From Octopus sinensis (Eukaryota), in contig NC_042997.1 in the NCBI RefSeq assembly GCF_006345805.1, forward strand, positions 158,534,001-158,598,000: a DNA stretch of 64,000 bases, in the 5' to 3' direction. The notes below the pieces were generated by a model. That model was not told where the DNA came from and made no database searches. It worked only from the letters and a program-made list of their open reading frames with translations. The translations under genes were made by a program, and so were the position numbers. Each line of letters starts with the position of its first letter. Position 1 is the first letter of the stretch. Of this stretch, positions 5,320-54,982 are shown piece by piece.

Positions 5320-6588
5320 AATATAGTTATATTCATATATATATATACGTATGTGAACACACATAAATACACATACGTGTGCGTATATGTGATAGTCCGA
5401 GCCTTTATATTTTTGTTTTCATTATTTATCCGTTATCAAGAGATCGTTTAACACTATTCTTTTTAAATGCGTGCCATTGTCATCAAAAATGCGTGTTCCA
5501 CGCTCCCGTTTTCTCGCTCATTGATGGCATTCGTGATAACAAACGCAGTTCGTTTATTTATCATTGCATTACTAATTTAAATCTAAAGTAAATAGAGCAA
5601 ATTCTCTATCACATATGAAATTAATTTGTTTAAATAACATGCTTAATATTTCTAAAACAGTCCTAACTAACTGCTTACTCACTTAGCTACAAAGAAAAGT
5701 CGAGTTGGTTGGTTCTTACATAAACAAATATTCTTATGCATTCGTGTTCCTGATAATTCTGCTCTTTAGTAAAAAAAATCTCTGCTTTCGTGAAGTTTTC
5801 TTATAAGTTTCTGTATAGTTGTACCTCGTCGAGAATCGGCTGCGTAATTTTCAATCAATGAAGACTTGCTTCATGTATGAATCATGCCAAATATCATAAG
5901 TTCACTAATACTTTTCAAACCAAATTTAAATGTGACATGAATAATTTTATGAGTCCCGAAAAACTTCAATTTTCTGATAAATCTAATAAAACAACGAAAT
6001 TATCTGTCACTATCTTTTATACAAATATTTTCCAAACATAAATGACAAACATAAATATTTAAAATAGTGTAAATTTTTAGTATAAAAATATGATTCAGAA
6101 AGTTACAGTCCATCTGAACTCGAAGCTTATCTTGCGCTTAATAACCATAAGGGACATTTTGCCTCAAATCCTGAGTGTAAATAAGTTGTGTACAAAATGG
6201 AGACAGGGTTAATAACGAAGAATATTTTACATAAAATTAATTATAATGTTAGGAAAACAACCAGCCTCTAGGAATGGAATAACAGCAAAACAATGATTAA
6301 TTCATACGATAGTATTAATATTCAATGCGGGTCTAGGATCATCCGAATTAACATTACTGAAACTTATTCTTGTAGGAATTTATTTCACTCATTACTGCCC
6401 GATATTTTGCTAGAGTACATAATACCATAGAAGGTAGTCACATAGTTTTCAATCTTCACCTAGGGAAGTTTCTGTCTGGTCTCGGTCCTGTGTTAACATA
6501 ACAAATCCCACGAGTTTCTTCTTTGTCATTACGGAGCCGTTCGATTATAGAGAGATATGTGATCTCATCGAACAATATATATATAAGG

Positions 6589-6894
6589 ATTAATAAATCT
6601 CTGAAAGAGATATAAACAGTAACCGCTCGACAACGTAAAGTGTACTAGCCATCTGAATGTGGCTAGCCACTGGGGGTGGGGTGTTACTGATGCTTTTAGC
6701 CCCAGGAGATCAACGTCACCAGCTGGCCTTAGACACAAAATTTCAGTGCCCTTGTGTTATTTGCAAAGGGAGGTCATCCTCCCTCGAAAACCTAAGTGAT
6801 ACATACGGACTATAGTTTCAAGGTAATTGTCTCTCGTCAACGCATGGTAAACACCGATTTTCGATGAAGGAGACCCTCTGCAAATAATAATAAT
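6589..6894 (+). mobile_element. 3' end of an R4/Dong-type non-LTR retrotransposon (ORF C-terminus, 3'UTR, (TAA)n tail)
   Basis: CGTAAAGT(GT)ACTAGCCATCTGA resembles the RKVLAI* ORF end. The 3'UTR ends CCCTCTGCAAATAATAATAAT. A homologous diverged copy lies at 8710-8960 (-). Confidence 0.65.
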
Positions 6895-6947
6895 TAACGT
6901 TTTTCACAGCAAGCACTGTCACTGATTTAGAAAAACTGTCTGAAAGC

Positions 6948-7245
6948 ATTAATAAATCTCTGAACGAGATATAAACAGTAACCGCTCGACAACGTAAAGT
7001 GTACTAGCCATCTGAATGTGGCTAGCCACTGGGGGTGGGGTGTTACTGATGCTTTTAGCCCCAGGAGATCAACGTCACCAGCTGGCTTTTCGAGGGAGGA
7101 TGACCTCCCTTTGCAAATAACACAAGGGCACTGAAATTTTGTGTCTAAGGCCAGCTGGTGACGTCGATCTCCTGGGGCTAAAAGCATCAGTAACACCCCA
7201 CCCCCAGTGGCTAGCCACATTCAGATGGCTAGTACACTTTACGTT
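6948..7245. repeat. Direct duplication (6948-7086 = 6589-6727) fused to an inverted duplication (7087-7245 = reverse complement of 6632-6790)
   Basis: Near-identical copies read directly, about 1 mismatch each. The result is a hairpin 6991-7086 / 7149-7245. Confidence 0.9.
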
Positions 7246-7336
7246 AATATATATATATTGATAGAAATGATAAGACAACAAAAGAATGAAAGAGACCTTG
7301 ATATTATGTAATAAGAGGAATTTATTTGTAAATGTA

Positions 7337-7546
7337 ATATGTGACAATTATTCGGCAGCCATGATAAAACTCCGAGTTTCGGATGTCGGGGTGGAAATCC
7401 ACGCCGCCATCTCTTCGGTTATCCGGCCATCGGAAAGAAATGCATTTTCCCCATGGCCGGATAACCGAAGAGATAGCGGCGTGGATTTCCACCCCGACAT
7501 CCGAAACTCGGAGTTTTATCATGGCTACCGAATAATTGTCACATAT
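7337..7546. mobile_element. 210-bp palindromic (fold-back) element with a hammerhead motif in each arm
   Basis: 94-bp arms (7337-7430 / 7453-7546) with 2 mismatches; centre AAATGCATTT; abuts a (TA)n array. Confidence 0.85.
7460..7520 (+). ncRNA. Type I hammerhead ribozyme motif (U4C core variant); mirror copy on - strand at ~7363-7423
   Basis: Stem I GATAA/TTATC; core CCGAAGA; stem II GAT..CGG.GTGGA/TCCAC.CCG..ATC(C); GAAA; near-palindromic stem III ACTC-G-GAGT; cleavage triplet GUU at 7513-7515. Confidence 0.65.
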
Positions 7547-7548
7547 AA

Positions 7549-7557
7549 AATATATAT

Positions 7558-7642
<85 letters not shown>
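7549..7642. repeat. (TA)n microsatellite
   Basis: Read directly. Confidence 0.95.
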
Positions 7643-8048: not shown

Positions 8049-8233
8049 TCCCTTTGCAAGGCGATACGAATTTGAATTTTATCATACAGAATATGAGTGT
8101 TATTTGGTATAAAGAGGTACCCTATCATAGAAATTAGAGGAAATAAAGTAGACAATAGTGGAGTAGAATTTATGGATGATAGTGTTTTCAGGTAAATGGA
8201 CAGAAATCGATAAAGTAACTTGGTATTTTACAA
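8049..8233 (+). repeat. 185-bp inverted copy of 10582-10766 (inside the decayed Dong LINE)
   Basis: Reverse complement match with one visible mismatch. Confidence 0.9.
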
Positions 8234-8464: not shown

Positions 8465-8709
8465 GTATTTGTCATGACTTGTATTGGTATTTTGTACCGT
8501 ATTCCACTTTCACTCACAACTCCACTTCTACCAAAAATAATATGTCTCCTGACCTACATCAACCAATCATAGCCTTCATTTATCACAGTTTCATAATATT
8601 ATGTTCCACCATATCACCTCAATCCTCTTCGATTTCAATTTCATCCATAACCTTTCATTATTTCATTTCAGCAAATTGTATTTGCTTGAAAATCTATATA
8701 TAAATATCC

Positions 8710-8960
8710 TGCAGAGTGAGTTGTTCGTCGAGGAAGCGGTGCCTACCATACGTTGATAATAGGCAAACACCTTGAAAACTAGGTCCGTGTGTGGTTTCCG
8801 CTTCATCGGGGAATTATCTCCCTTTGCAGGATAGAGGACGCCGTGATGGTGTCAAGCCTATCTGGCGACGTTGATGTTCGCCTGGGGCTAAATGCAACAG
8901 TAACACCCCCACCACCCTGCCCTGTCCCTAGTCATATTCAGATGGCTTTAGTCCCTTATG
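8710..8960 (-). mobile_element. Diverged R4/Dong 3'-end fragment
   Basis: Reverse complement GCCATCTGAAT..GGGGTGTTACTGTTGCATTTAGCCCCAGG..TGCAAAGGGAG..CTCTGCA matches 6648-6882. Confidence 0.7.
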
Positions 8961-9249: not shown

Positions 9250-12200
9250 CGTATGCTCTCATCGAAAAGATAATAGTACCAGCAAATCATTGGGATCGAT
9301 GGCATCGACTGATTACTAACTCCCCAAATTCCTGGACTTTTGCCTAAACTAGAAATTACTCCTATAACTATTACTGAATAAAGAAATAGCGGTTCTCTCC
9401 AGTTTTGATGTTCTTCCGGATTCTTTATGCTATATCTCTGATCCTTCCTTAGAGAAAACATTTTCCTTAACGCATGCGATGTTTTGAGGACAGTCACCCC
9501 TTGTATACTTCCAATGATGTCAGGTAGTTCGAAATTTTAATTTCTTATAGATGGTTTCCAGTGCACTAACAACTATGCTCATCGCGCTAATTATTCAGGC
9601 TGTATGAATACGCTGTATTGTGAAAGCTAGGCCATGCTACTTACGGGTTTGTCATTCTCGTCTCTGTTCTCTTAGGGCGGTAACGCTATAAAAATGAAAA
9701 CCCATTCATTGGTCTCTTTTCATATGAGTGTGGTATTTGATAGATTTTACTGAAGTATCTTACCGGTGCAGTTTGTCACATCCCGAGTGATTTTCAACTT
9801 GCTCATTCTCTGTAACTGGAAAGAGTTGGTGTTCATGCCACTCATAGTTACACTCTAGCTCGTACTTTACCAACCGTGAAATGTTGTATCGTTTTCTATA
9901 CCCCTGGGCCGATTCTCAACATACACTAACTACAATCGTTTACAGATTAGTTTCCACACAATGGACACACATATATTGCTCATGTCTTATCAATGTTGTA
10001 CTTGATAGCATTAGTTAGCAAAACTTGTTTTTGAGCAGCAAGGAACAAACCTTTAGTCTCCTTTAAAAACCATATCTTAACCATATCCAGAATTCCTCAC
10101 CTCGATTCGATATTTGTTGGAAAAACTCTCCATGTAGTACTTTCTCTAGTTTTCTATATTACCCTTCATGAGTCTTCCTTTTAAATTCCTTAAGCTTCTG
10201 GTTATCATCCCTAGTCACCTCACACATTGTGACCCGAAACATCCATTTATCTATATTCTTAGTATGTGCATTCAATGATTTACCTTCTTTCCTATCACAC
10301 TTCTCTACTCCATGCAATCTTTCCCTCCGGCATTGTTTGGAAGATAGCCCTAGCTACATTACTTCTGGTATGAAAGTATTTGTGCTTATCTTTCTACTTC
10401 TTTCTATGCTGACCTGTTTCTCTTTTGTCAAATCTACAGGTTATTATATCAGCCCATGCTTACAATCTAAGTGTTAATGCCATGCCATTTGTCATATTGA
10501 TTCATTTAGCTTGAATCTACACGATTTAGATTTCTTCTTCTAATCTGCTATGATCATCTTGATTTCAGTCATCTGGTTTCATTGTAAAATACCAAGTTAC
10601 TTTATCGATTTCTGTCCATTTACCTGAAAACACTATCATCCATAAATTCTACTCCACTATTGTCTACTTTATTTCCTCTAATTTCTATGATAGGGTACCT
10701 CTTTATACCAAATAACACTCATATTCCGTATGATAAAATTCAAATTCGTATCGCCTTGCAAAGGGAGACAATTTAATCCCTTCTAGCCTCGTTAAACGTC
10801 AGATTATCCATCAATAGTGGGAAGTGGTTGTTATGTTTTTCAACAGACTCGATCTTCAATCTATAACCAGATTTTATTTTCAAAACCAAAGTCAATGGTA
10901 ACAATAAAAACAAACAACTGTGGCAAAGGTCCTCAACCTGCTGTCAAACTTGTCTTTGAATTCCTAGTACTGTAGCTTACTCAAGATATAGTTTGAGCTG
11001 CCCCGATCATCTCCCGGCATTTCCTAATCTACGAGTGACATATCATGCCTTTAGCATTTGATGCACTGTTCCTTTAGATCCCTCCCCCGATTCTTTTATT
11101 CATCAGCTATTAATGGCTTTCTTTCCAAGAGTTCATACTGTATTTCTCCCACTATTCCATATCACGAGAAACCAGACTATCACTTGGTAGTTAATAACAT
11201 AAGCTCCAGCTTTTGTTGAGACCGGGTAAATTTGCCTCTTCTCGTTTTTCTCCATCTACAATTTCGAACAACAGGGTCTGGTTAGTTCTAAACAGTCTAT
11301 TTTGTTTGAACTGTAGGCATCTTTCCTCATATCATCTGATCTTTATTCCACCAGCTTTGATCTTTTTGAATCAAACAATGTTCCATTTTCTTACGGGTGT
11401 TATATCACTTTGTCAAGTCACTTATTTCTTCACCTTACCTCTTCAATCTAACTCAAATTATTTTTTTAATTATCCATATTACCTCCGATTCCGTTTTACG
11501 AAAATTGTATATTGCTTCTCTTTCTTTTCTCTTCCTTCAACATATACTCATTCTTTCCGTAGTGACATGTGCAGCGCCATACATGAACACGATTCCTCTT
11601 TGTGATAGTTTTAGTTTGAATTTTCAGAACCTTTTCTTTAACTTCCCCATCCTCCGATATCAGCTTTGAAGACGAACGAAATACTGCTAAGTATTTTGAC
11701 TGGCGTGGTAACAATTCTGCCAGCTTACCGCCTCTGAAGTTCCTCAATGACGGCAATCCTTTCTTCTCTACAAAAAACATCACCTGTAGAAGTTCTGTCA
11801 TGCGAATCTGTGCTGATCTCTCCTCGTGACTTTTCAGCTAAAGGGTTATATTGTGGTTCTCTACAGCTGGCATATTTCCCTCTTCCATATCCGAGCTATG
11901 CTGATTCCCTTATACAACGGGTATTTCTTCCGGGACTGCATTTCATTTCTCATTGCCTCTGTGCTTTTATCTTGTACCACATTTTCTAATCAAAACTTCA
12001 TATTGATTTGAGTCGCTTCTTTTCATTGACAACCTTCAGCTCATCTTGGTGGTAAAATTTTCTCCAGGGATGTGATCATTTATTTTATAGTCTTGTTTTT
12101 CTAGCTGACTCCTGATGTAACTTGCAAAGAACATTTTATTGTCCTCTTTTGACCTTTTTAATTTCATTTGTTGTTCGTCAACTGCAACTTGATTATGATC

Positions 12201-12300: not shown

Positions 12301-12573
12301 TTTTTCTAACACATTAGGTATATGTGGTAAGTTTTCTCAATCAGTAGATTTCAACAATTCAAGTGGTCATCCAAGATTCTTAGAGGCCCGTTTGTTCACA
12401 TTTAAGCTGGTTACTTTGTGCTTGTCGCAACAAATAGTATTTAACTGTGCATCAAGTAAATATAAAAGAAATAAGATAAGGGAGACAAGAGAAGGAATAA
12501 AATTGATTGAAGAACAGATCTTTATTTTAGAGGTTATTAACTCCTAGATGACTTTTCTTTTTAAGAAATTCAG

Positions 12574-12795
12574 AGGCGGCAAGCTGGCAGAATTGTTAGC
12601 GCAACAGGCAAAAGACTTAGCAGTATTTCGTCCGTCTTTACGCTCTGAGTTCAAATTTCACCGATTCTCAATTTGCTTTTCATCCTTTTGGGGGCGATAA
12701 ATTAAGTGCAGTGAAACATTGTGGGTTAATATAATCGACTAGTCTCTCCCCGCAAAATTTCAGCCTTTGTTTCTTAGTAGAAAGCATTATTATTA
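12574..12795 (+). mobile_element. OR1-like tRNA-derived SINE
   Basis: AGGCGGCAAGCTGGCAGAA..GAGTTCAAATT..TTTGCTTTTCATCCTTT.GGGGGCGATAAA..AATCGACT, with an (ATT)n tail. Family recurs throughout the window. Confidence 0.8.
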
Positions 12796-13247
12796 CTATA
12801 CATTAATATCATGCTTACATTATTTATTCACACACATGAGGCTTTGTGCTATGCGAATATATTTCAACTGCAATTATGTGCATGAAATACATATTGCGTA
12901 ATCAATGAAGAACTATCAAAAGCATAAATATACACATAATGGCCTCCACTAATGCATCAGGCAGGTTTATAATTAATTTATATACTAGCAGATGGGTGCC
13001 CTCAGCTGGGGAGAGAATCCTATTATGATATTCTAGGGAGAGATTACCAAACTGAGGAGATGTTTGTTGGGTTACGCCTCTCTTTTTCCTTGTATAAGAA
13101 GCATCGAAAAAACATATTTACTTTCGTATTTTCCCCACATCGACTTCTCGTAATAAATGCATACATATATATATATATGTATGTGTATGGAAGTGTACAT
13201 ACACATCTATCTATCTATCTACCTATCTATCTAGCTATCTATCTATC

Positions 13248-13283
<36 letters not shown>

Positions 13284-13410
13284 ATATATATATAGATGCA
13301 AAGGAATATGGTACTTAAGTTAGATTCACTAGAATTTTGTATGGTGTTATCCATATAAATCCATGGGGTGATTATAATCAAAATAAGCAAAAAGAACATC
13401 TTCGGTAATT

Positions 13411-13494
13411 TGGTACGATCGTTTCACGCTACATCATTTTATTAAACATTGTAAGTATTACAACAGTTTTAAAATGTTGAGCAATCATCAGCCA
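13411..13494 (-). ncRNA. Type I hammerhead ribozyme with canonical CUGAUGA core and long stem II
   Basis: Reverse complement: TGG-CTGATGA-[TTGCT..CATTTTA..TTGTAA TAC TTACAA..TAAAATG..AGCGT]-GAA-ACGATCGT-A-CCA. Stem III ACGATCGT is palindromic; cleavage triplet GUA. Confidence 0.75.
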
Positions 13495-13603
13495 TTTATA
13501 GATGTTTTCCATTAATACATATTTTCAAATTAATTGATAACAGCCCTCTCTATAATGTTATCAATTAATATGAAAATATGTATTAATGGAAAACCTCTAT
13601 AAA

Positions 13604-13687
13604 TGGCCGATGATTGCTCAGCATTTTAAAACTGTTGTAATACTTACAATGTTTAATAAAATGATGTTGCGTGAAACGATCGTACCA
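13604..13687 (+). ncRNA. Type I hammerhead ribozyme, mirror copy (core CCGAUGA)
   Basis: TGG CCGATGA (13607-13613), long stem II, GAAA at 13673, ACGATCGT, GUA at 13682-13684, CCA. Confidence 0.65.
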
Positions 13688-14549
13688 AATTACCGAAGAT
13701 ATTCTTGTTGCTTATTTTGAGTGCGGATTCAGAATGTTTGTATACTCTGCTAGCTTTCCTTGCATGATCAGTGAAGCTATTAGGAAGCTGAAACTCATCA
13801 ATGGATTATTTTATCCGAGCGTATTTCGGATCTTACGTAACTGTGAGAAATGAATACTATGAAAATTTCATATCTCATTACTAACATTTCATTAAATTTT
13901 ATTCAAGCATACATCCATTATGTCCATTTTGCTCAATACAAAGAAAACAAAAATTATATATTAGTGTGAATGACTTCAATGTTTCTTCTTTTCTCACCTG
14001 TTAAATGATATACATTTTTTTTATATATATTCGAGATCACTTAGTTAACTTACTTTATCTTATAGAATTTGCTTTAGGCTGAAACAAATGATGTAATCTT
14101 CGTTATTTACGCACTTGTTCATCATCGACAACGCCAGTACGATGAGTGAAGTAGATAATCGGTGTTTACTTGGAATATATATCATTTAAGTAAATTAACC
14201 TCGACATATTTCCCTCCCCTGCTTTGTTTTCTTTTCTTCATGCGATCACCCAGAGAACGTTCTCGATGTCTAGGATATCATTGTATAATGCCTAATGACT
14301 GCGAATCGATTAATGGCTTTCATCATCTACTTTATTTCAAAATTAATTTAAAAGCAAAATTGAGAAAAATACATTATGCAAAATGATATATATGCATATA
14401 TACGTACGTACATGCGCACATATATACATAAAAGCATATACACATACATACGTGTTTATGTGTGTATGTACGTATCTATGTATATATGTACTTTGTAAGT
14501 ACAATATATATATATTGGCTAAACTGGCAATATGACCATTCCGAAATAT

Positions 14550-15789: not shown

Positions 15790-18200
15790 AAAATTCGTGA
15801 GACACTTTGGTAAGAATACCTTCATTGGATTTCTCTGATGAATTAATATTGATACATAAAACAGACACGTAGCGAAAAACATTTCTATAAATAGTCGGTA
15901 TAATTGCTCTGAAATTCCTTAGTATTTGATTGGTATTTATTTTATTAACACTGATTATATCAAAGAGAAACTTCACTGTGACTGGATTCGACCACAAGAC
16001 ATAAAATGGCTTCATGGAACATACAAGATTGTAATGGATCACTTTTGCGTCCGTTATTTTAGAAATTTTGCCTTTATGAGGGTCATTTTTAGTCATTTCG
16101 GTTGTTTGTGGGTTTTAAGGATCTTAAGTGTGTGTAAAATGTCCTTTAATTTGGAATCCTTATGCAACATTGGTAAATTTTAGGTGACAATGGGGAAGGT
16201 TTCTTTGTTTCTGGGGTTGTATGTGGATATGTACGACAGTATTTTCGGGGAAGGTGTGTTGCTGTGTTGAACTTTTCTTAAGGTTTCTATGTCGATATGT
16301 GTTGCAAGTCTGATTCCATCCTCTATGAGATGAACTGGACAGTGGTTGTTAATCGGGGTGTTTTTGAGATCTTACAGTGTAAAGTCTCTGTTATTTTGTC
16401 TGACACTATTGGTCATATCCTTCTTGCAAGGTTCAAGGGGATGTTTGTTTTGGTGCCTTGGGTGGCAGGAATTAATAGTAGATATTGTTTAGCGTCTATG
16501 GTTTTGTAAAATATCTCTGTTTCTATTTTTAGGTTTATTTTATAATTAATATATCCAAGAATCGGAGTTCCTTGTGGTGGTATTCCGTTGTAAACTGTAT
16601 CTTTGGGCTGACGCTGTTCAATAGTCTTTTGAATTTTAGGAGTTAGCCTGTGTTTTCATTCCAGAGAATGAATCAGTCATCTAGGAGTCTTTTCCAATTT
16701 TCTTTTATGTATTGGGAAAGGGGGTTTCCAAAGGTAGATAACGATTTCTGGTAATTATTATTTCCAGATAGCCCATTGTTAGATTCTCAATGACCAGGGC
16801 GACCCTAGTGCCCATGTTATTTCCAGATTTGTGTTGATAAAGCATATTGTCAAACATAAAGTGGTTGTTTCGTAGGATGAATTCAACCGATTCAATTATG
16901 AATTCTTTGCTGATCCTTTCCGGTATTTCTTCCGGATATTGGTTCAGCCAGAACTGAATTGCCTCTAGCCCATAATTATGAGGTATACTGGTATATAAAT
17001 TAATCACATCAAATGAAACCATGATTATTTCTTCCTTGACTTCTTTGGAGGTGATTTAACATGTCCAAGTCATCTCTAATATAGTTATTGATGTGTTTAA
17101 GAAAGGGTTTCAGGAGGATGTTCATAAATAGACTTAGTCTGTGTGCTTCACAGGCTGGGCCAGTTATAATGGGTGGTAATTGTAGGTCCGCTGGGTTTGT
17201 TGCATGTATATACGTCTTCGGTGATTTTTTATGTTTTCATTTATAATCTGACTTTTGTTGAATTTTGGTAGACTGTAGAAAAGGTTAGGTTTGCATTTAA
17301 AGTTTGTTAAATAGTTAATTTCTTTGGTTGTTAGTTCTTTTCCATGGGTTTTAATTAGTGAGGACAAGATTTTCATTATTTTTTGCGGGGTGTGTTTAGT
17401 GATTCTTTCGTAATGTTGACTGTCATTCAGCATAGGGATTAATAGATTTCTATAGTATAATGTGTCTATTACTACCACTGCACTTCCTTTATCTGCTTTC
17501 TTAATCGTTATATCATCTTTATTTTGAAGTTCTGTTAGTTCCTTCCATTGTGTAGTGCTAAACCTTTCCCTAATAGCCCGCTGTCTGTCAGGTTAATTTA
17601 GTATTATTTTGATCTGGAATTTGCGTGGAAGAATAATTGGTGTTGATTTCATCCATCTCTCGTAGATATCTGCTCTGTTGGAATTTTTTATCATATTCCA
17701 GAAAGCTAGTTTTCTATTATGGAAGTTTGTATTCCAGATGTTCTCTACTTTTCTTTTTGTTAGATTGACTTGTAAGTATGACGTCCTGGTGTGTTTCATT
17801 TGATGTGCGTTGGTTGTTCTTCGGTTTGTTTGTGAAGACCGACTTTAGTGTGGTGCATAGAGTGTTTAAATCTTTACTAATCTGTTCCTGTTTTAAACTG
17901 AATTCATTGTAAGTGTCGTGGAGAGAGAGTTGTTCATTGTTGGGTTTGTTAATAAACATTGAGTTGAGAGTTGTGCATAAAAGTTGTAAGCCATTACTAA
18001 CCTGATCTGTGAGATGAGTTGTTTCTTCAATGTTTTTCCTCTCCCGGGCGAGTTGGTTTGAGTTCTCGATTTTGTTATTTATGATAATGAGGTGCGATTT
18101 AATATTTTTGAGTTCTTTAAGTATGTCCTAGTTTGTAATTTTATCTGATGTATTGGTCTTCTGTGGCATTTTCGGTTCCACGTGTTTTAGCATATGGTTG
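15790..18200 (-). pseudogene. Decayed Penelope-like (Neptune-type) ORF: N-terminal domain + RT, 3'-truncated before the GIY-YIG domain
   Basis: ORF fragments VSFDVINLYTSIPHNYGLEAIQFWL..GTRVALVIENLTMGYLE, KKADKGSAVVVIDT and FKCKPNLFYSLPK. Clearly homologous to the young element at 23492-27655. Stops and frameshifts present. Confidence 0.9.
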
Positions 18201-18269
18201 AGGGAGTTGGTATGTGAAAGAACGTCGTTGAATGTACAATAGACAAAAATTAGGTGAAAAAAATTTAAA

Positions 18270-19036
18270 AAGACGTGTTATATGGTTAAAGAATATATTT
18301 AAATTGTTATGCTAGAAAAATGTTATAAAATTTTGTGTATAGTAACATTGTTTTTGGAGAAATAACCGTCATATTTTCTTCTCAAATTTCTCAAATATCT
18401 TTGCCAATACTGTGTCATCTCTTTGCTAGATATCACAGTACGAGAGTTCCAGACAGGGGAAGGTAATCGCTCAGGCGAAGATGCACTCTGCACCGACAGC
18501 AGATTGCATTCCTAGAATACAGAATGATACCCTTTAGTGAACACATTCAGAAATGCGCAAAGCAACTGCTACCACAATTTGTAATCTTTACATTATATCA
18601 ATGTGCCATTGGAACGCCAACACAAGTTCAATTAAATAAGGAAACCTATTTCATTGGAAAATATAAGCCAAAACGTGACCATTTCTAGCATTTTTAAATA
18701 AGGAAACTTACCTCACAGTATAAAAATATAAAGCAAAACCTAGCATTCAATTCTTTCTAAATCAAAACATGTTAAATTAATAAAAGCTAATCATTCCCAA
18801 CATTTTTGATTATCTCTTTTATACCGAAAATATCCCTGATTATCTTACCCTGTCTGGAACTCTCATACTTCATAGCAAAAAGATGACGCAATATCGGTAA
18901 AGAAATTTGAGAAATTTGCAAAGAAAATACGAAACCGAAATTTCTCCAAAAACAATTTTACTATACACAAAATTTTATAACGTTTTTCTAACATAACGAT
19001 TTAAATATATTCTTTAAAACCATATAACACGTCTTC
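18270..19036. mobile_element. Penelope pseudo-LTR (18270-18468, -) plus inverted 3' fragment (GIY-YIG C-terminus 18469-18690 and pLTR 18838-19036, +)
   Basis: 18270-18468 and 18838-19036 are diverged inverted repeats. The intervening + strand encodes LRRRCTLHRQQIAFLEYRMIPFSEHIQKCAKQLLPQF. Both repeats carry degenerate GAGAAAT-TTG(A/C)(G/A)AA..ATTTCTC hammerhead motifs. Confidence 0.85.
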
Positions 19037-19045
19037 TGTAGTTTT

Positions 19046-19400
19046 CACAGGCTTGGCTGTGTGATAAAAAGCTTGCTTCCGAAACACATGATTCCGGGTT
19101 CAGTCCCACTGCGTGGTACCTTGGTTGTGTGTTTCTACTGTAGCCTCTGGTCAACCAAAACCTTGTGAGAGAATTTGATAGACGGAATCTGAAAGAACCC
19201 CATCGAATATGTGTGTGCACGTGCGCGTGTGAGTGCAACTTTGTGTCTTTGTCTCTCACCGCCGTTTGACAATTAATGTTGATGTGTTTACGTTCTCTCA
19301 ACGTAGCGGTTCGGTAAAAGGGTCCATAGAATATGTACTACATTTAGCAAAAATCCTGTAGTTGATCTGTTCGACTTTAAGGCGGTACTCTGAAACGATT
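19046..19400 (+). mobile_element. OK-like SINE, near full length, diverged
   Basis: Matches 21398-21808 along its length. Confidence 0.85.
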
Positions 19401-19441: not shown

Positions 19442-20290
19442 CAGGGTGCGTAAGTTGTTTGAAGACATATTTATGTTTATAAAAAATACAGATATACAAT
19501 AACAGATAACATTATATATTTTAAAAATGCTGTGAGGATAAAAGTAAAACTTCTTTTCTATAATTTTATTCAATAAAGCTACTTTCAGCATCCGCTTCTA
19601 TATGAGATCTAAATCATCAATATGCTTGAATCAAGTTGTCTCGGTTCATTTTGGACATTACTTTCACTATGACAGCTTTCAAAGAATCTTTGGTGCTATG
19701 GGCGTGTTTATTGAGCTCTCTCTCTGAACAACGCTCCACATGTAATAGTCCAATTGAATGATATCTGGGGAATTAGGAGGCCGAATTTTAGGGGCTATGT
19801 AATCGTGAAAATTTTCAGCCATCCATTCCTCTGTTAATAGAGGCATGTGTGATAGTGCAGAGTCTTACTGAAACACATATATCCTTCCATTACATACACT
19901 GTCTATCCAGGGCTTTACAAGTGTTTCAAGTACCTCAATGTAGGTGAAAAAGTTGACTCGAAGGCCTTGTGGAAAGAAGTAAGGAGGCATCACATGTCCT
20001 TCATTGCTGACAAACCCTAAAACCATGACAGTTGCAGGAAATTTTGTATGCATAGCGCTTGGAACTTCAGAAAGGTCTGCACATAACCATCTGTCATTTC
20101 TTCTGTTAAATATTTGACCTTGGTCGAAGTTTTTCGCGTTTGGAAAAAAACAAATCAAATCTTCCTCTGCAAGATTTTTCAGATTTTTTAAGTACCTTTT
20201 AGATCTGTTGTAGTAATTTTACTTTTGCTTTTTCGGACAAATTGACTTTTCCTCATCATATCAGACTTACATCTGATGTCTTGTGTATAT
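19442..20290 (-). mobile_element. Tc1/mariner (probably DD37D/maT-like) transposon, 3' part with one TIR; transposase pseudogene
   Basis: ORF 19865..20158: NRRNDRWL..KFPATVMVLGFVSNEGHVMPPYFF..VKPWI..YVFQ, followed by PPNSPD-like sequence at ~19760. TA-CAGGGTG terminus at 19440-19448. Confidence 0.8.
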
Positions 20291-20353: not shown

Positions 20354-20598
20354 TTACGGAGAAGTACTTGCATAGCAATTGATTTGATCTGAGATCGTGT
20401 GCTGAAACGAAAACAATTGCAGCGTGGAAGGTGTTTGTAAGCCATTTAAGAAACACACAAAAGCCGTTCGATTCACTTCAACATTTAAGTTTAATTTGTC
20501 AAAATATTTTCGTCGCTTTAAGACCGCGACCTGTTCACTGCCAAAACTCGGATTTTTGTCAGTGAACAGGTCGCAGTCTTAAAGCGACGAAAATATTT
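20354..20598 (-). mobile_element. Short pLTR-like element with terminal fold-back (hairpin 20502-20598) and G3-C8 hammerhead motif
   Basis: ~45-bp arms with 2 mismatches, spacer CTCGGAT. Motif TTTG(T/G)CA-GTGAACA-G-GTCGC..GCGAC-GAA-AATATT-T-TGACAAA. Confidence 0.7.
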
Positions 20599-20957: not shown

Positions 20958-21330
20958 ATACGGGTTTCAAACGCCTAAAAGGACAATTTAGTTATGAAGA
21001 TATATAATAGGAAAAATAAATTGAAATAAATTATTTTTTTCATTTGAGTTCTGAGGATCACATGTTTTTTCTATTCAAGAATGACATGGTATTCGTATGT
21101 CGTTTCCCTCTCACTGTAGCTGGTTCGTGGACACACTTCCACTGCTACCTCTACTATCCACCAATAATCAGATGAAACGAAACACCAACATCATATGATT
21201 TTGTAAGAAAAACATGTGATCTTCCAGAACTGATATAATGGAAGTTTACATTAATTTAGGTTTTTTTCATTTTATATATTCTCTTACATCTCTTTGACTA
21301 AATCTTCCTTTTAGGCGATTCAAACCCGTT
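20958..21330. repeat. Old diverged palindrome (~370 bp)
   Basis: ACGGGTTT.AA.CGCCTAAAAGGA..ATTTAGT at 20960 versus its reverse complement at ~21296-21328. AGTTCTG.A.GATCACATGTTTTT at 21047 versus its reverse complement at 21206-21231. Confidence 0.75.
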
Positions 21331-21354: not shown

Positions 21355-21397
<43 letters not shown>

Positions 21398-21399
<2 letters not shown>

Positions 21400-21808
21400 C
21401 GCAGGAGTGGCTGTATGGTAAGTAGCTTGCTAACCAACCACATGGTTCCGGGTTCAGTCCCACTGCGTGGCATCTTGGGCAAGTGTCTTCTACTATAGCC
21501 CTGGGCCGACCAATGCCTTGTGAGTGGATTTGGTAGACGGAAACTGAAAGAAGCCTGTCGTATATATGTATATATATATATATAAGTGTGTATGTGTTTG
21601 TATGTCTGTGTTTGTCCCCCTAGCATTGCTTGACAACCGATGCTGGTGTGTTTACGTCCCCGTCACTTAGCGGTTCGGCAAAAAGAGACCGATAGAATAA
21701 GTACTGGACTTACAAAGAATAAGTCCCGGGGTTGATTTGCTCGACTAAAGGCGGTGCTCCAGCATGGCCGCAGTCAAATGACTGAAACAAGTAAAAGAGT
21801 AAAGAGTA
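21398..21808 (+). mobile_element. OK-like tRNA-derived SINE, full length, young
   Basis: GGCGCAGGAGTGGCTGTATGGTAAG (A box), GGTTCAGTCCC (B box), CORE-like CTTGGGCAAGTG, internal TA/TG repeats, tail GAAACAAGTAAAAGAGTAAAGAGTA; flanked by (TA)n. Confidence 0.9.
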
Positions 21809-23417: not shown

Positions 23418-23458
<41 letters not shown>

Positions 23459-23632
23459 TAAGAAAGTTTGTTTGGTAAAGCACGTGGGTGAATATATAAG
23501 AAAATAGTAAAGTGTGAAAAAACGACAGAAGGCTTAAATGTTAAAAAATATATATATTTGTGTCAAAATGTCTGGAGAATATTGGAAAAATTTTTTTCCT
23601 TTCCTTAAAATGACATAATTTTAAAATTTTTA

Positions 23633-23672
23633 AAGAAATTACCGGTTTCGCGTGTAGCTTTTCAAATTTCTT
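23633..23672 (-). ncRNA. Minimal type I hammerhead (U3-A8 variant), left arm
   Basis: Exact mirror of 27475-27514. Confidence 0.75.
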
Positions 23673-23809
23673 GTGACGTTATGTTTATATTGCATGGAAT
23701 TATCGTTGTTTTTATTTCCAGGAGATTTCTAAATAAGGGGAGGTAGTGAGTGATTTTTTCCGGTGTAGGGGAGATAATCGCTTAAAAAATTTTTTTTCCA
23801 TTTCCTTGT

Positions 23810-24740
23810 TAATTTCTCTGTGTCAGTATGTTCGGATGGTTGAGTCTGGGTTTGTACTTTTCAATGAAGAATGTTTCCTTGTTCAGTCTCATTTGTGTTG
23901 ATGATCCGAAAGCACATTGGTAAAATGGGAAGATTAAAATTGTGGCAGTAGTTGCTTTGCGCATTTCTCAATGTGCTCACTAAAAGGTATCATTCTATAT
24001 TCTGGGAATGCAATCTGTTGTCGATGCAGTGTGCATCTGCGCCTGAGTGATAGTCCCGTGGAACCCACGTAGTCTTGGTGGCAGCCCGAGCATTTAATAA
24101 CATAAATTATGTTTTCAGAGGCACAAGTAAAGTTAGATTTGATCTTAAATTTCTGTCCCTCTTTAAAGAAGAATTCTGATCCTTCCAATAGGTTAGGACA
24201 TGTTGCACAGTTCGATCTACCACATTTTTTTACTTTTGCATCCGTAATTTTAGAAGACAATTTTGCCTTTGTGAGAATCTTTTTAAGTGATTTAGGCTGT
24301 TTGTAGCTTTTAATGATTTGGTGTATGTTTAGAATTTCCTTTAATTTTGGGTTTTTATGAAGTATTGGTAAATTCTGGGTGATGATGGTGAAGGCTTCTT
24401 TGTTTCTGGGGTTGTATGTAGATATGTAAGGTAGTATTTTCGGGGAAGGTGTGTTGTTGTGTTGAACTTTTCTTAAAGTTTCTATGTTGATTTCTGTTGC
24501 ACGTCTGATCCCATCCTCTATGAGTTGAGCTGGGTAATGTCTGTCAATTAGGGTGTTTTTGAGTTCTTGCAGTCTAAAGTTCCTGGTATTTTGTTCTGAC
24601 ACTATTGTGCATATCCTTCTTGCAAGGTTGAAGGGGATGTTTGTTTTAGTGTGTCTTGGGTGGCATGAATTAAAAAGAAGGTATTGTTTGGCGTCTGTGG
24701 CTTTGTAAAAAATGTCTGTTTCTATTTAAGGTTAATTTTT
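23810..24740 (-). CDS. PLE thumb/linker + GIY-YIG endonuclease (left arm; 1-nt frameshift near 23935)
   Basis: ORF 23934..24602 with CGRSNCATC linker and NIIYVIKCSGCHQDYVGST (GIY-YIG). Confidence 0.85.
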
Positions 24741-25582
24741 TAATTAGTATATCCAAGAACGGGAGCTCCTTTTGGTTGTATTCCATTGTGAACTGTATAT
24801 TTGGGTTTATGCTGTTCAATAGGTTTTTAAATTTTAGGAGTTTATCTATGTTTTCATTCCAGAGAATGAAACAATCGTCTAGGAATCGTTTCCAATTCTC
24901 TTTTATGTATTGAGAGAGGGAGTTTCCAAAGATTGATAGAGATTCCTGGTAAATGATTATTTCCATGTATCCCATTGTTAAGTTCGCAATGACTGGTGCT
25001 GCCCTTGTACCCATAGCAATTCCGGATTTTTGACGGTAAAATGTATTGTCAAACATGAAGTGGTTATTGTGTAGGATGAATTCAATTGATTTAGTAATGA
25101 ATTCTTTACTGATCCTTTTTGGTATTTCTTCCGGAAATTGGTCTAACCAGAATTGTATTGCCTCCAGTCCATAATTATGAGGTATACTGGTATACAAGTT
25201 GACTACATCAAATGAAACCAGGATTGTTTCTTCCTTGGTTTTTTTTGGAAGGTGGTTTAACATATCTAAGTCATCTCTGATATGGCTATCGATATGTTTA
25301 AGGAAGGGTTTCAAGAGGATGTCCATAAGTAGACTTAGTCTGTGTGTTTCACAGGTTGGGCCAGCTACAATGGGTCGTAGTTTTAGGTCCCCCGGATTAG
25401 GTGTGTGTATGTATGTCTTTGGTGATTTTTTAATGGTTTCATTTATAATTTGACTTTTATGAATTTTTGGCAGACCATAGAAAAGGCTAGGTTTGCATTT
25501 AAAGTTTGTTAGGAAATCAATCTCTTTGGTTGTCAGTTCCTTTTCATGGGTTTTAATTAGTGAAGATAGAGTTTTCATTATT
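24670..25582 (-). CDS. PLE reverse transcriptase (left arm, 5'-truncated)
   Basis: FYGLPKIHK, LRPIVAG, SFDVVNLYTSIP, QKSGIAMGTRAAP, WKRFLDDCF, LPFLDILI. The N-terminal ~24 aa of the listed ORF are read-through across the palindrome centre. Confidence 0.9.
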
Positions 25583-26424
25583 TCACTAATTAAAACCCAT
25601 GAAAAGGAACTGACAACCAAAGAGATTGATTTCCTAACAAACTTTAAATGCAAACCTAGCCTTTTCTATGGTCTGCCAAAAATTCATAAAAGTCAAATTA
25701 TAAATGAAACCATTAAAAATCACCAAAGACATACATACACACACCTAATCCGGGGGACCTAAAACTACGACCCATTGTAGCTGGCCCAACCTGTGAAACA
25801 CACAGACTAAGTCTACTTATGGACATCCTCTTGAAACCCTTCCTTAAACATATCGATAGCCATATCAGAGATGACTTAGATATGTTAAACCACCTTCCAA
25901 AAAAAACCAAGGAAGAAACAATCCTGGTTTCATTTGATGTAGTCAACTTGTATACCAGTATACCTCATAATTATGGACTGGAGGCAATACAATTCTGGTT
26001 AGACCAATTTCCGGAAGAAATACCAAAAAGGATCAGTAAAGAATTCATTACTAAATCAATTGAATTCATCCTACACAATAACCACTTCATGTTTGACAAT
26101 ACATTTTACCGTCAAAAATCCGGAATTGCTATGGGTACAAGGGCAGCACCAGTCATTGCGAACTTAACAATGGGATACATGGAAATAATCATTTACCAGG
26201 AATCTCTATCAATCTTTGGAAACTCCCTCTCTCAATACATAAAAGAGAATTGGAAACGATTCCTAGACGATTGTTTCATTCTCTGGAATGAAAACATAGA
26301 TAAACTCCTAAAATTTAAAAACCTATTGAACAGCATAAACCCAAATATACAGTTCACAATGGAATACAACCAAAAGGAGCTCCCGTTCTTGGATATACTA
26401 ATTAAAAAATTAACCTTAAAATAG
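25582..26424 (+). CDS. PLE reverse transcriptase (right arm, 5'-truncated; frameshifts at A-runs near 25715 and 26405)
   Basis: ORFs 25493..25762 (3' part) and 25819..26424 carry the same RT motifs. Confidence 0.9.
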
Positions 26425-27338
26425 AAACAGACATTTTTTACAAAGCCACAGACGCCAAACAATACCTTCTTTTTAATTCATGCCACCCAAGACACACTAA
26501 AACAAACATCCCCTTCAACCTTGCAAGAAGGATATGCACAATAGTGTCAGAACAAAATACCAGGAACTTTAGACTGCAAGAACTCAAAAACACCCTAATT
26601 GACAGACATTACCCAGCTCAACTCATAGAGGATGGGATCAGACGTGCAACAGAAATCAACATAGAAACTTTAAGAAAAGTTCAACACAACAACACACCTT
26701 CCCCGAAAATACTACCTTACATATCTACATACAACCCCAGAAACAAAGAAGCCTTCACCATCATCACCCAGAATTTACCAATACTTCATAAAAACCCAAA
26801 ATTAAAGGAAATTCTAAACATACACCAAATCATTAAAAGCTACAAACAGCCTAAATCACTTAAAAAGATTCTCACAAAGGCAAAATTGTCTTCTAAAATT
26901 ACGGATGCAAAAGTAAAAAAATGTGGTAGATCGAACTGTGCAACATGTCCTAACCTATTGGAAGGATCAGAATTCTTCTTTAAAGAGGGACAGAAATTTA
27001 AGATCAAATCTAACTTTACTTGTGCCTCTGAAAACATAATTTATGTTATTAAATGCTCGGGCTGCCACCAAGACTACGTGGGTTCCACGGGACTATCACT
27101 CAGGCGCAGATGCACACTGCATCGACAACAGATTGCATTCCCAGAATATAGAATGATACCTTTTAGTGAGCACATTGAGAAATGCGCAAAGCAACTACTG
27201 CCACAATTTTTAATCTTCCCATTTTACCAATGTGCTTTCGGATCATCAACACAAATGAGACTGAACAAGGAAACATTCTTCATTGAAAAGTACAAACCCA
27301 GACTCAACCATCCGAACATACTGACACAGAGAAATTAA
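26420..27338 (+). CDS. PLE thumb/linker + GIY-YIG endonuclease (right arm)
   Basis: IETDIFYKATDAKQYL..SCHPRH, Cys-rich linker CGRSNCATC (Neptune hallmark), NIIYVIKC..YVGST..RRR..H, and E..FI..Y.P.LN. Confidence 0.9.
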
Positions 27339-27474
27339 CAAGGAAATGGAAAAAAAATTTTTTAAGCGATTATCTCCCCTACACCGGAAAAAATCACTCA
27401 CTACCTCCCCTTATTTAGAAATCTCCTGGAAATAAAAACAACGATAATTCCATGCAATATAAACATAACGTCAC

Positions 27475-27514
27475 AAGAAATTTGAAAAGCTACACGCGAA
27501 ACCGGTAATTTCTT
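27475..27514 (+). ncRNA. Minimal type I hammerhead ribozyme (U3-A8 variant) in the PLE 3' pLTR
   Basis: Stem I AAGAAAT/ATTTCTT; core TTGAAAA; stem II GC-TACAC-GC; GAA; palindromic stem III ACCGGT; GUA at 27505-27507. Confidence 0.75.
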
Positions 27515-27684
27515 TAAAAATTTTAAAATTATGTCATTTTAAGGAAAGGAAAAAAATTTTTCCAATATTCTCCAGACATTTTGACACAAATATATATATT
27601 TTTTAACATTTAAGCCTTCTGTCGTTTTTTCACACTTTACTATTTTCTTATATATATATATATATATACACCTACCTACCTACC

Positions 27685-27731
<47 letters not shown>

Positions 27732-34208: not shown

Positions 34209-34897
34209 GAGAGCTTTATTTCGCTGGTGATCTAAGCGAATTGGTACGCTGTGTAAATGCTATAATTTGTTATATATATATATATATATATATATCTTGT
34301 GCATACAGTGAGATGTACGACTGCTACTAAAGATTTTAGAGCTTGATGTAGAGTATTTATCCAGTGACACTTGCAACATACACTGCAGTGGTGCGGTAGA
34401 TGAAAATGGTTTTGAATGGAGGTGTTGTGTCGAAGCGTCTAGTATTTTAGAACCCGTTGAAGTGAGATAGTTGTTTTTCATTAACGTTTTAGTTTCAAGA
34501 ATAACAATATGTTTCGTACCATTTACAGACCACATCAGACTGAGTTGATATTTGCAGTTACTTAAATTAAACCTCTGCAGACTGACGCGTGATGAATACA
34601 TGTGAGGAGGAAGAGAGCATCCAGACGCTGGTTAAATGTTTCAGCCAACTATTTAGAGGTTAGGCACAGTAGAGTTGGTGTAAGTGAATAACATGAACTT
34701 GTATAATGTGGTACAACGTGAACTTGTTCAGAGAAGCAAATGCTGTAGCCATGGATGTCGATAGGAAAACAATATGCTAATGGACTATCGGTTACAGACT
34801 CCCATAAGTAAAGTTATGCTAATCAGGAAACTTTACTTGTTTTATCATTGAGCATTTAAAATAAATGTCACTGCTGCAGCACTGCTTATATACATAC

Positions 34898-35020
34898 AGC
34901 AGGTGTGGATGTGTGATTAGAAGCTTGCTTCTCAACTACATGGTTCCGGATTCAGTCCACTGCGTAGCACCTTGGGCAAGTGTCTTCTACTATAGCTTCG
35001 GGCCGACCAAAGCGTTGTGA
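34898..35020 (+). mobile_element. OK-like SINE 5' fragment
   Basis: GCAGGTGTGG..CATGGTTCCGGATTCAGTCC.ACTGCG..CTTGGGCAAGTGTCTTCTACTATAGC. Confidence 0.8.
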
Positions 35021-54548: not shown

Positions 54549-54761
54549 ATATATATATATTTATATATGCATACATATATACATGTAGATGTAGGTACGT
54601 ACATATATGTATGTATGTATGCATATATTTTATTTATTAATTTATTACATGACTGAATGCCCTCGCGTCGTTTCGTTTCTTTTCTGTTCTCCAAGAAAGT
54701 TTATATATGTATATATATATACGTATGTATGTATGTATGTATGTATATGTATACACACACG

Positions 54762-54925
54762 CGACGAGCTTCTTTCAGTTTCTGTCCATTAATATCGATT
54801 TACCATGATTTGGTCGACATGAGGTTATGATAGAAAATACTTGTCCAAGGTGCCACGCAATAGGAATGAACCCAGAATCAAGTGGTTGGTAAGCAAGCTT
54901 CTTACCCTATCGTCATGCCTGCACC
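54762..54925 (-). mobile_element. OK-like SINE 5' half
   Basis: CTTCTTTCAGTTTCTGTC..ACTTGTCCAAGGTGCCACGCAATAGGAATGAACCCAGAA..GGTTGGTAAGCAAGCTTCTTACC..CCTGCACCT. Confidence 0.8.
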
Positions 54926-54948
54926 TTTATATATATATGTATATGTAT

Positions 54949-54982
<34 letters not shown>

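Follow-up and report, generated by a model that had tools for sequence, protein, structure and literature searches.

What is a palindrome that presents a hammerhead ribozyme motif on either strand, each with a very long stem II: a device in its own right, or the remnant of a mobile element? The question is raised by positions 13378..13720 of the window (the whole 64,000-nt stretch of Octopus sinensis DNA analyzed here), which consists of AT-rich animal DNA with microsatellites. In our reading, the palindrome is very probably the severely 5′-truncated 3′ end (pLTR) of a Penelope-like element (PLE), inserted head-to-head with an inverted copy and now dead.

Anatomy and authenticity of the palindrome

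The palindrome is formed by two arms of 165 nt each, 96% complementary, around a 13-nt spacer at the head-to-head junction (13543..13555). The left arm (13378..13542, − strand) would represent the truncated pLTR part of the element, oriented leftward, and the right arm (13556..13720, + strand) is its inverted copy, oriented rightward and ending 36 nt past the predicted ribozyme cut. These arms are longer than any found in 8 block-shuffled windows, where the longest short-spacer inverted arms reached 12–17 nt, and the 343-bp palindrome described in an earlier note on this DNA is thus borne out. The note's count of about 7 differences between the arms proves exact: there are 7 substitutions and no indels.

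These differences also bear on whether the sequence is real. The assembly seems to contain homopolymer indels typical of long reads, which would suit a fold-back artefact of sequencing or assembly. However, a young palindrome of 4.2 kb nearby (23434-27707) carries 0 substitutions and 3 homopolymer indels over ~2066 nt of arm. Substitution noise in the assembly is therefore low, and the 7 differences in 165 nt therefore represent real post-insertion divergence. Moreover, the flanks of the focal palindrome are not mirror-imaged and its spacer is non-palindromic. The focal palindrome is genuine genomic sequence, an artefact being scarcely credible; the earlier argument from arm divergence is strengthened by the substitution-free 4.2-kb palindrome and the unmirrored flanks.

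Hammerhead motifs in the two arms

Each arm contains one outward-facing type I hammerhead motif, located by descriptor search. The left motif (13411..13494, − strand) has a 3-bp stem I, the core CUGAUGA at 13491-13485 and a predicted cut after 13414; the right one (13604..13687, + strand) has the core CCGAUGA at 13607-13613, with C at position 4, and a predicted cut after 13684. The stem II region spans 59 nt in both arms, as the earlier note had it. Folding predicts 23 pairs, −14.4 kcal/mol and a U.U at the base for the left region (13426..13484; 25% GC), and 22 pairs and −12.3 kcal/mol for the right (13614..13672). Stem III (13415..13422 on the left, 13676..13683 on the right) is the octamer ACGAUCGU, located 3′ of GAA; it is self-complementary, that is, perfectly palindromic as had been claimed. 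In a monomer it amounts to 2 bp with a tetraloop and is weak, and in a dimer it forms an 8-bp inter-molecular helix (−10 kcal/mol). Thus, all three helices are present, with stem I open and limited to 3 contiguous pairs against the 22–23 of stem II.

The core residues C3-U4-G5-A6-N7-G8-A9, G12-A13-A14, A15.1-U16.1 and H17 are complete in the left arm, and the right arm has C4. The earlier description of the left motif as canonical is too strong, given the 3-pair stem I and the U.U base of stem II, where the G10.1-C11.1 closing pair is absent. U.U at this position is a known natural exception (PMC3088659, PMC7229834), and C4 is a natural hammerhead variant, reported to be less active yet functional (PMC3088659, PMC9608096). 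A change from U to C in the right arm had been proposed; the difference at position 4 is real, but its direction could equally be C to U at a CpG. The two near-identical arms, the only copies compared, show no compensatory change. In this one family, the halves of the long stem II (13426-13484) are set apart more by bulges than by mismatches, a pattern that slippage when the stem arose, or selection to keep it paired, could explain.

The hammerhead motif exceeds chance. In 2301 dinucleotide-preserving shuffles of the whole window, with descriptors composed after the motif was known, CUGANGA combined with a palindromic stem III of 6 or more occurs at 0.0056 per window (observed, 1), and a palindromic stem III combined with a stem II region of ≤−10 kcal/mol at 0.0078 per window (observed, 4: both focal arms and both arms of the palindrome at 7320-7563). 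A relaxed descriptor gave 10 matches in the window versus 3.2 expected; 7 of them lie in inverted elements, and the remaining 3 are at chance level.

Folding and covariance models, proposed earlier as a check, gave a divided answer. The left stem II hairpin is more stable than its shuffles (z −4.3, 0/200, for a tested window off the exact region by one base), and the right one is weaker and marginal (z −2.4, 4/200), but the stability of the whole 143-nt arms is not unusual in shuffle folding (z −0.7 and −0.3), and Rfam reports no hammerhead, either at gathering threshold in the whole window or at E≤10 in 13200-13900. A strict hammerhead descriptor likewise gave 0 matches in the whole window. 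Because the hammerheads beside the window's own PLE ORF are also missed by Rfam and by the strict descriptor, the Rfam test is insensitive. The Rfam miRNA matches in 13200-13900 score far under their gathering thresholds and are due to the palindrome and the TA run. Stem II was also considered as a pre-miRNA and rejected, since a hairpin with 25% GC and −14 kcal/mol is weak for such a precursor.

Predicted energies point to cleavage in dimers. In a monomer, the hammerhead fold lies 4.9 (left) and 6.5 (right) kcal/mol above the free minimum, whereas for the double-hammerhead fold the gap is 1.6 kcal/mol on the left and 2.5 on the right, with comparators at 1.4, 4.3 and 6.2; the dimers were folded with an artificial linker, and these are secondary-structure energies only. 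The predicted probability of the monomer ribozyme fold is 8e-5 and 3e-6 in the two arms, and 3e-6, 2e-5, 0.025 and 0.66 by the same calculation in hammerheads beside PLE ORFs. The ribozyme thus appears shaped for cleavage as a dimer, in which tandem copies in the parent element would pair via the palindromic stem III, and the prospects that the isolated left arm would be active as a dimer seem about even.

At this locus, the models indicate that the ribozyme is almost certainly silent. The antisense arm is always transcribed first; therefore, read-through RNA folds as a hairpin of −234 or −237.5 kcal/mol, with the hammerhead fold more than 110 kcal/mol above. Because the two motifs lie on opposite strands and this hairpin buries both, the ribozymes cannot cooperate. 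The special "twin hammerhead" device seen in the earlier note does not survive this analysis: the pairing of motifs is a by-product of inverted insertion. The 165-bp read-through hairpin is a likelier source of small RNA than of cleavage; small-RNA production is documented in rotifer PLEs (PMC3846280). As to the long stem II, its sequence suggests loop II expanded into an AU-rich hairpin, which is probably tolerated and not needed.

Parentage, rival origins and insertion

Within the PLEs, a parent of the Hydra clade is likely. Because the fragment has no ORF with the protein marks of that clade (RWK, DKT, a CxCX5C linker and no CCHH; PMC8557442), the assignment is made from the ribozyme only, by comparison with the 25 Hydra-clade families given in File S2 of Craig et al. 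2021 (PMC8557442; counted by eye), examples of the clade being Penelope-1/2/3/4/8_HM, Hydra-1_Ajap and Hydra-1_Obim. In 6 of the 25, a run of 15 consecutive letters that starts in stem I, crosses the core and enters stem II is identical to the left arm, half of this match being the conserved core itself. U.U is found at the stem II base in 14/25 families, as in the focal arms; a short stem I and a near-palindromic stem III are likewise shared, and a (TA)n target probably so. Penelope-13_HM includes an inverted 5′-truncated copy with a hammerhead on either strand, as in the focal palindrome.

The end geometry agrees as well. From the predicted cut there are 36 nt to the end of the focal arm and 119 nt to the TA run (31 and 109 in element 7320-7563). 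Among 24 of the 25 consensuses in that file (Penelope-18, with its motif at the 5′ end, was excluded, and the antisense row of Penelope-13 was dropped), the cut-to-end distance is 30–48 nt in 10 and 88–135 nt in 9, the rest being 63, 70, 150, 153 and 355. A hammerhead in sense orientation, outward in both arms and 36 nt from the arm end, fits the placement in PLE pLTRs.

The fragment carries no coding sequence, as expected for a short 3′ end. Self-BLAST found neither a second copy nor a parent element in the window, nor any sequence link between the focal arm and the window's PLE; the six arm translations gave chance-level matches only. An exact 24-mer of the arm has 0 occurrences in GTDB contigs, and a distant-mode search of a phage collection with the arm gave no match. 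With 120 PLE proteins as queries, tblastn matched the window only at 16099-18691 and 23937-27311; a six-frame scan of the window for six Hydra-type protein motifs gave one isolated, chance-like match, at 19842; and a 44-codon open frame entering the putative tail had 0 matches in 1.84 billion proteins.

The window contains 7 inverted structures with a short spacer, the focal palindrome among them (8 listed rows, two of which are one locus): 4 match the hammerhead descriptor, 2 have a motif by eye only and 1 has none, and every hammerhead motif in them faces outward. In 4 of the 6 that were measured, the left side has 38–83 nt extra, followed by (TA)n, and the right arm abuts (TA)n in 3 of these 4 tailed elements, but not in the focal palindrome. 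The structure at 23434-27707 is a young head-to-head palindrome of a 5′-truncated PLE with a reverse transcriptase (RT) and a GIY-YIG-type end, located in (TA)n, with a 17-nt spacer; its left arm alone is extended, by 38 nt. It has a Pfam RVT_1 match, a GIY-YIG-type end recognized by eye, as was the zinc-finger-like linker (CX4CxxC, as in Neptune/Nematis), and U3-A8 mini-hammerheads at 27482-27507 (+) and 23665-23640 (−); its frameshifts sit in homopolymers and may be assembly errors. Relatives of this RT carry RVT_1 and often GIY-YIG, the named ones being mostly from bivalve molluscs, alongside contigs filed under symbionts. An older, ~83% identical relative of this PLE occupies 16041-19035 (− strand); an inverted 3′ copy, 570 nt long, lies at 18466-19035. 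By eye, both of its pLTR copies hold decayed hammerheads of the 23434-27707 type.

The palindrome at 7320-7563 has the core CCGAAGA, and thus C4, in both arms, a GC-rich stem II region of 31 nt, a 78-nt left extension and a right arm at (TA)n. That it (7337-7546 in the earlier note) is unrelated to the focal palindrome in sequence yet of the same design is correct on both counts: self-BLAST and alignment give no homologous register, and both arms of each carry a hammerhead with a palindromic stem III and a stable stem II. Its core context and 3′ end resemble, by eye, those of Hydra-1_Obim as listed. A small element at 6585-7245 consists of direct repeats 359 nt apart and an inverted copy, with a 46-nt tail, and has a hammerhead with a U3.G8 core at 6840-6808 (−). 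A 70%-identical relative, with a U3-A8 core by eye, is seen at 8682-8947; the two are possibly a retrozyme-like non-autonomous PLE. A 97-nt palindrome at 20502-20598 is hammerhead-like (core G3-C8), and its right arm ends precisely at the predicted cut; this likeness is doubtful, and the palindrome may belong to an adjacent Tc1/mariner remnant. A Tc1/mariner transposase fragment (~70% identity, with DDE_3-bearing relatives) lies at 19865-20218, and a decayed palindrome (68%) without clear hammerhead at 20960-21329. Two inverted pairs, 8049-8233 / 10582-10766 (185 nt, 99%, 2348 nt apart) and 11669-11742 / 12565-12638 (74 nt, 88%), are possibly terminal repeats of non-autonomous DNA transposons, and a dispersed SINE-like family (71–83% identity) is found at 1608-1789, 19048-19390, 21356-21759, 34887-35020 and 54740-54967; a SINE-like frame gave no matches.

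These neighbors help to weigh other origins of the focal palindrome. Its parent could be a non-autonomous non-LTR retrozyme, of which it would be a truncated and inverted copy, instead of an ORF-bearing PLE; such retrozymes are tandem units of 150–400 nt that contain a type I hammerhead and depend on a PLE enzyme for movement. The axolotl HHR_Amex2 has U.U at the helix II base and a helix III of 2 bp closed by a tetraloop, as do the focal motifs (PMC7229834); retrozymes have been argued to stem from PLE pLTRs (preprint 10.64898/2026.07.22.740005); the small unit with direct repeats at 6585-7245 lies in the same window; and no ORF is attached to the focal fragment. However, the window holds no direct or tandem copy of the focal arm, and the detailed match to the Hydra-clade pLTR hammerheads of File S2, together with the end geometry, points to a PLE. 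Retrozymes described in PMC7229834 are direct tandem 150–400-nt units with contacts between loops 1 and 2, whereas the focal structure is one inverted pair, whose loop 2 appears too far out for such contacts. A retrozyme parent is, in our opinion, distinctly unlikely; it implies the same insertion mechanism, and only the parent differs.

If the palindrome were a selected bidirectional device, transcription would start in its AT-rich center and give two short self-cleaving RNAs, one from each strand, or a hairpin RNA would be kept by the host. The ribozyme could fold only in RNA started near the center, and pLTR promoters acting in both directions have been proposed (PMC3846280). Both arms keep a nearly intact core; of the three arm differences in stem II, one preserves pairing (A-U to G.U). 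Nevertheless, the 7 differences are evenly spread, fall in the core too and disrupt one stem II pair, as in neutral decay, and the layout is common to many unrelated families in the window, which makes such a device very unlikely. A foldback DNA element (MITE), or a template-switch palindrome of replication, with a chance hammerhead-like motif is comparably improbable. Tc1/mariner remnants and terminal-inverted-repeat pairs do occur in the window, Rfam reports no hammerhead, and the monomer fold probability is low; but two of the hammerheads adjacent to PLE ORFs score as low (3e-6 and 2e-5, the two others 0.025 and 0.66), chance would supply the motif in only 0.006–0.008 cases per window, and a flanking target duplication is absent.

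A dead, inverted PLE end is therefore retained as the preferred reading, with a tail probably on the left. This would be the 83 nt at 13295..13377 (− strand) between the left arm and the microsatellite, although that segment could be host DNA; beyond it lies a (TA)n run (13236..13294), a probable insertion target in view of the (TA)n preference of Hydra-clade PLEs. The putative tail is long compared with the 38–78 nt of the three other tailed elements and with the usual 30–40 nt of the one-sided tails of PLEs, which are also known for inverted 5′-truncated copies (PMC8557442). Between the right arm and the nearest (TA)4 lie 301 nt, as against 0–3 nt in the three other tailed elements. For comparison, 10% of random window positions have a (TA)4 run no more than 90 nt away. 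No target-site duplication was found at the arm ends, and none of at least 4 nt under either tail model.

Both arms span an intact cut site; therefore, the template was RNA uncleaved at that site. Since both also share the long stem II, the insert was already present in this RNA. We envisage a parent RNA carrying a single type I hammerhead close to the 3′ end, and an RT-endonuclease, encoded elsewhere, that would have cut at the edge of the (TA)n run. cDNA synthesis would have begun ~119 nt downstream of the ribozyme cut, at the tail end, and copied ~250–260 nt; an inverted second copy would then have been joined via the 13-nt loop and ended at the tail-less boundary 36 nt past the cut, after which the arms would have drifted at 7 sites. 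Two routes to the inversion are conceivable: the cDNA folded back on the newly made strand, or the other DNA end primed a second synthesis. Near-equal arms (with spacers of 10, 13 and 17 nt in three elements) favor local fold-back, and the spacer of 23434-27707, in frame with the tail-bearing arm, fits it; joining of two cDNAs primed from both DNA ends is a possible alternative. Self-priming on an antisense template has been proposed (PMC3846280). In agreement with an uncleaved template, uncleaved RNA is reported to be the substrate of an anole PLE in vitro, both target strands are cut and extended, and two RT start sites define the tail (PMC11167929). Palindromes with one tail, of several families and ages in one window, offer material for understanding how PLE inversions form.

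Stem II beside known hammerheads

As a locus, the decaying end of a retroelement carries little weight. The only unusual feature is a stem II more than twice the usual length; the arrangement itself is known. In the window, other stem II regions measure 9, 14 and 31 nt. In GTDB contigs, hammerheads beside PLE ORFs were found in three of four examined (L001, L003 and L004), with stem II regions of 14, 18 and 13 nt, and none was found in L002. These hammerheads were placed at 1852-1882 in L001, at 48-80 and 3545-3577 in L003, where two direct pLTR copies lie 3.5 kb apart, and at 1924-1897 in L004; the contigs come from bacterial bins and are probably eukaryotic DNA. In the 25 Hydra-clade families the stem II region is 12–26 nt, against 59 nt here, and stem III has 3–4 bp with 1–3 loop bases in 25/25, whereas the focal stem III lacks an unpaired base at its center.

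No animal PLE hammerhead with a stem II of 59 nt was found in the literature, though supplements or large variant sets could hold one, and the publications on long or extended helix II in connection with PLEs gave, as far as their available text goes, only viral 6-bp helices (PMC13725137). By our own count in File S2 of PMC8557442, 54 and 48 nt separate the core halves in two spike moss elements, PLE-X1_sMoe and PLE-X1_sTam, whose hammerheads are flagged there as deviating from the canonical form. These are plant elements, endonuclease-less and rDNA-targeted, with other stems than the focal motif, and a common origin of the expansion is unsupported.

The published search for PLE hammerheads allowed 7–17 nt between the core halves (PMC8557442). 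Long-stem forms lie outside these limits. Rfam and short-spacer descriptors miss the focal motif, and hammerhead counts in such genomes are therefore underestimates. The motif is a ready test case of whether a PLE ribozyme needs or tolerates a 50-nt insert in loop II. That selection turned loop II into a large hairpin module in one lineage of animal PLE hammerheads, with 59 nt in the focal motif and 31 nt in the unrelated element at 7320-7563, seems unlikely. If this were the case, it would constitute a natural aptazyme-like platform, bound by the element's protein, which would switch cleavage on or place reverse transcription, and some PLE families recorded as having no hammerhead or a half core would be long-stem families.

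Other features of the locus are already in print, namely opposite-strand pairs, inverted truncated copies with tails, U.U bases and C4 cores. Thus, pairs of minimal hammerheads on opposite strands, 100–700 bp apart, were described by Cervera and De la Pena 2014 (PMC4209133), and head-to-head palindromes are known in PLEs (PMC3846280). The minimal metazoan PLE hammerheads of the former study share with the focal motifs the type I topology, a short helix I, a larger helix II and a palindromic helix III that implies dimers. Their helix II, however, is given as 6–8 bp with a conserved G10.1-C11.1, whereas the focal stem II has 22–23 predicted pairs on a U.U base.
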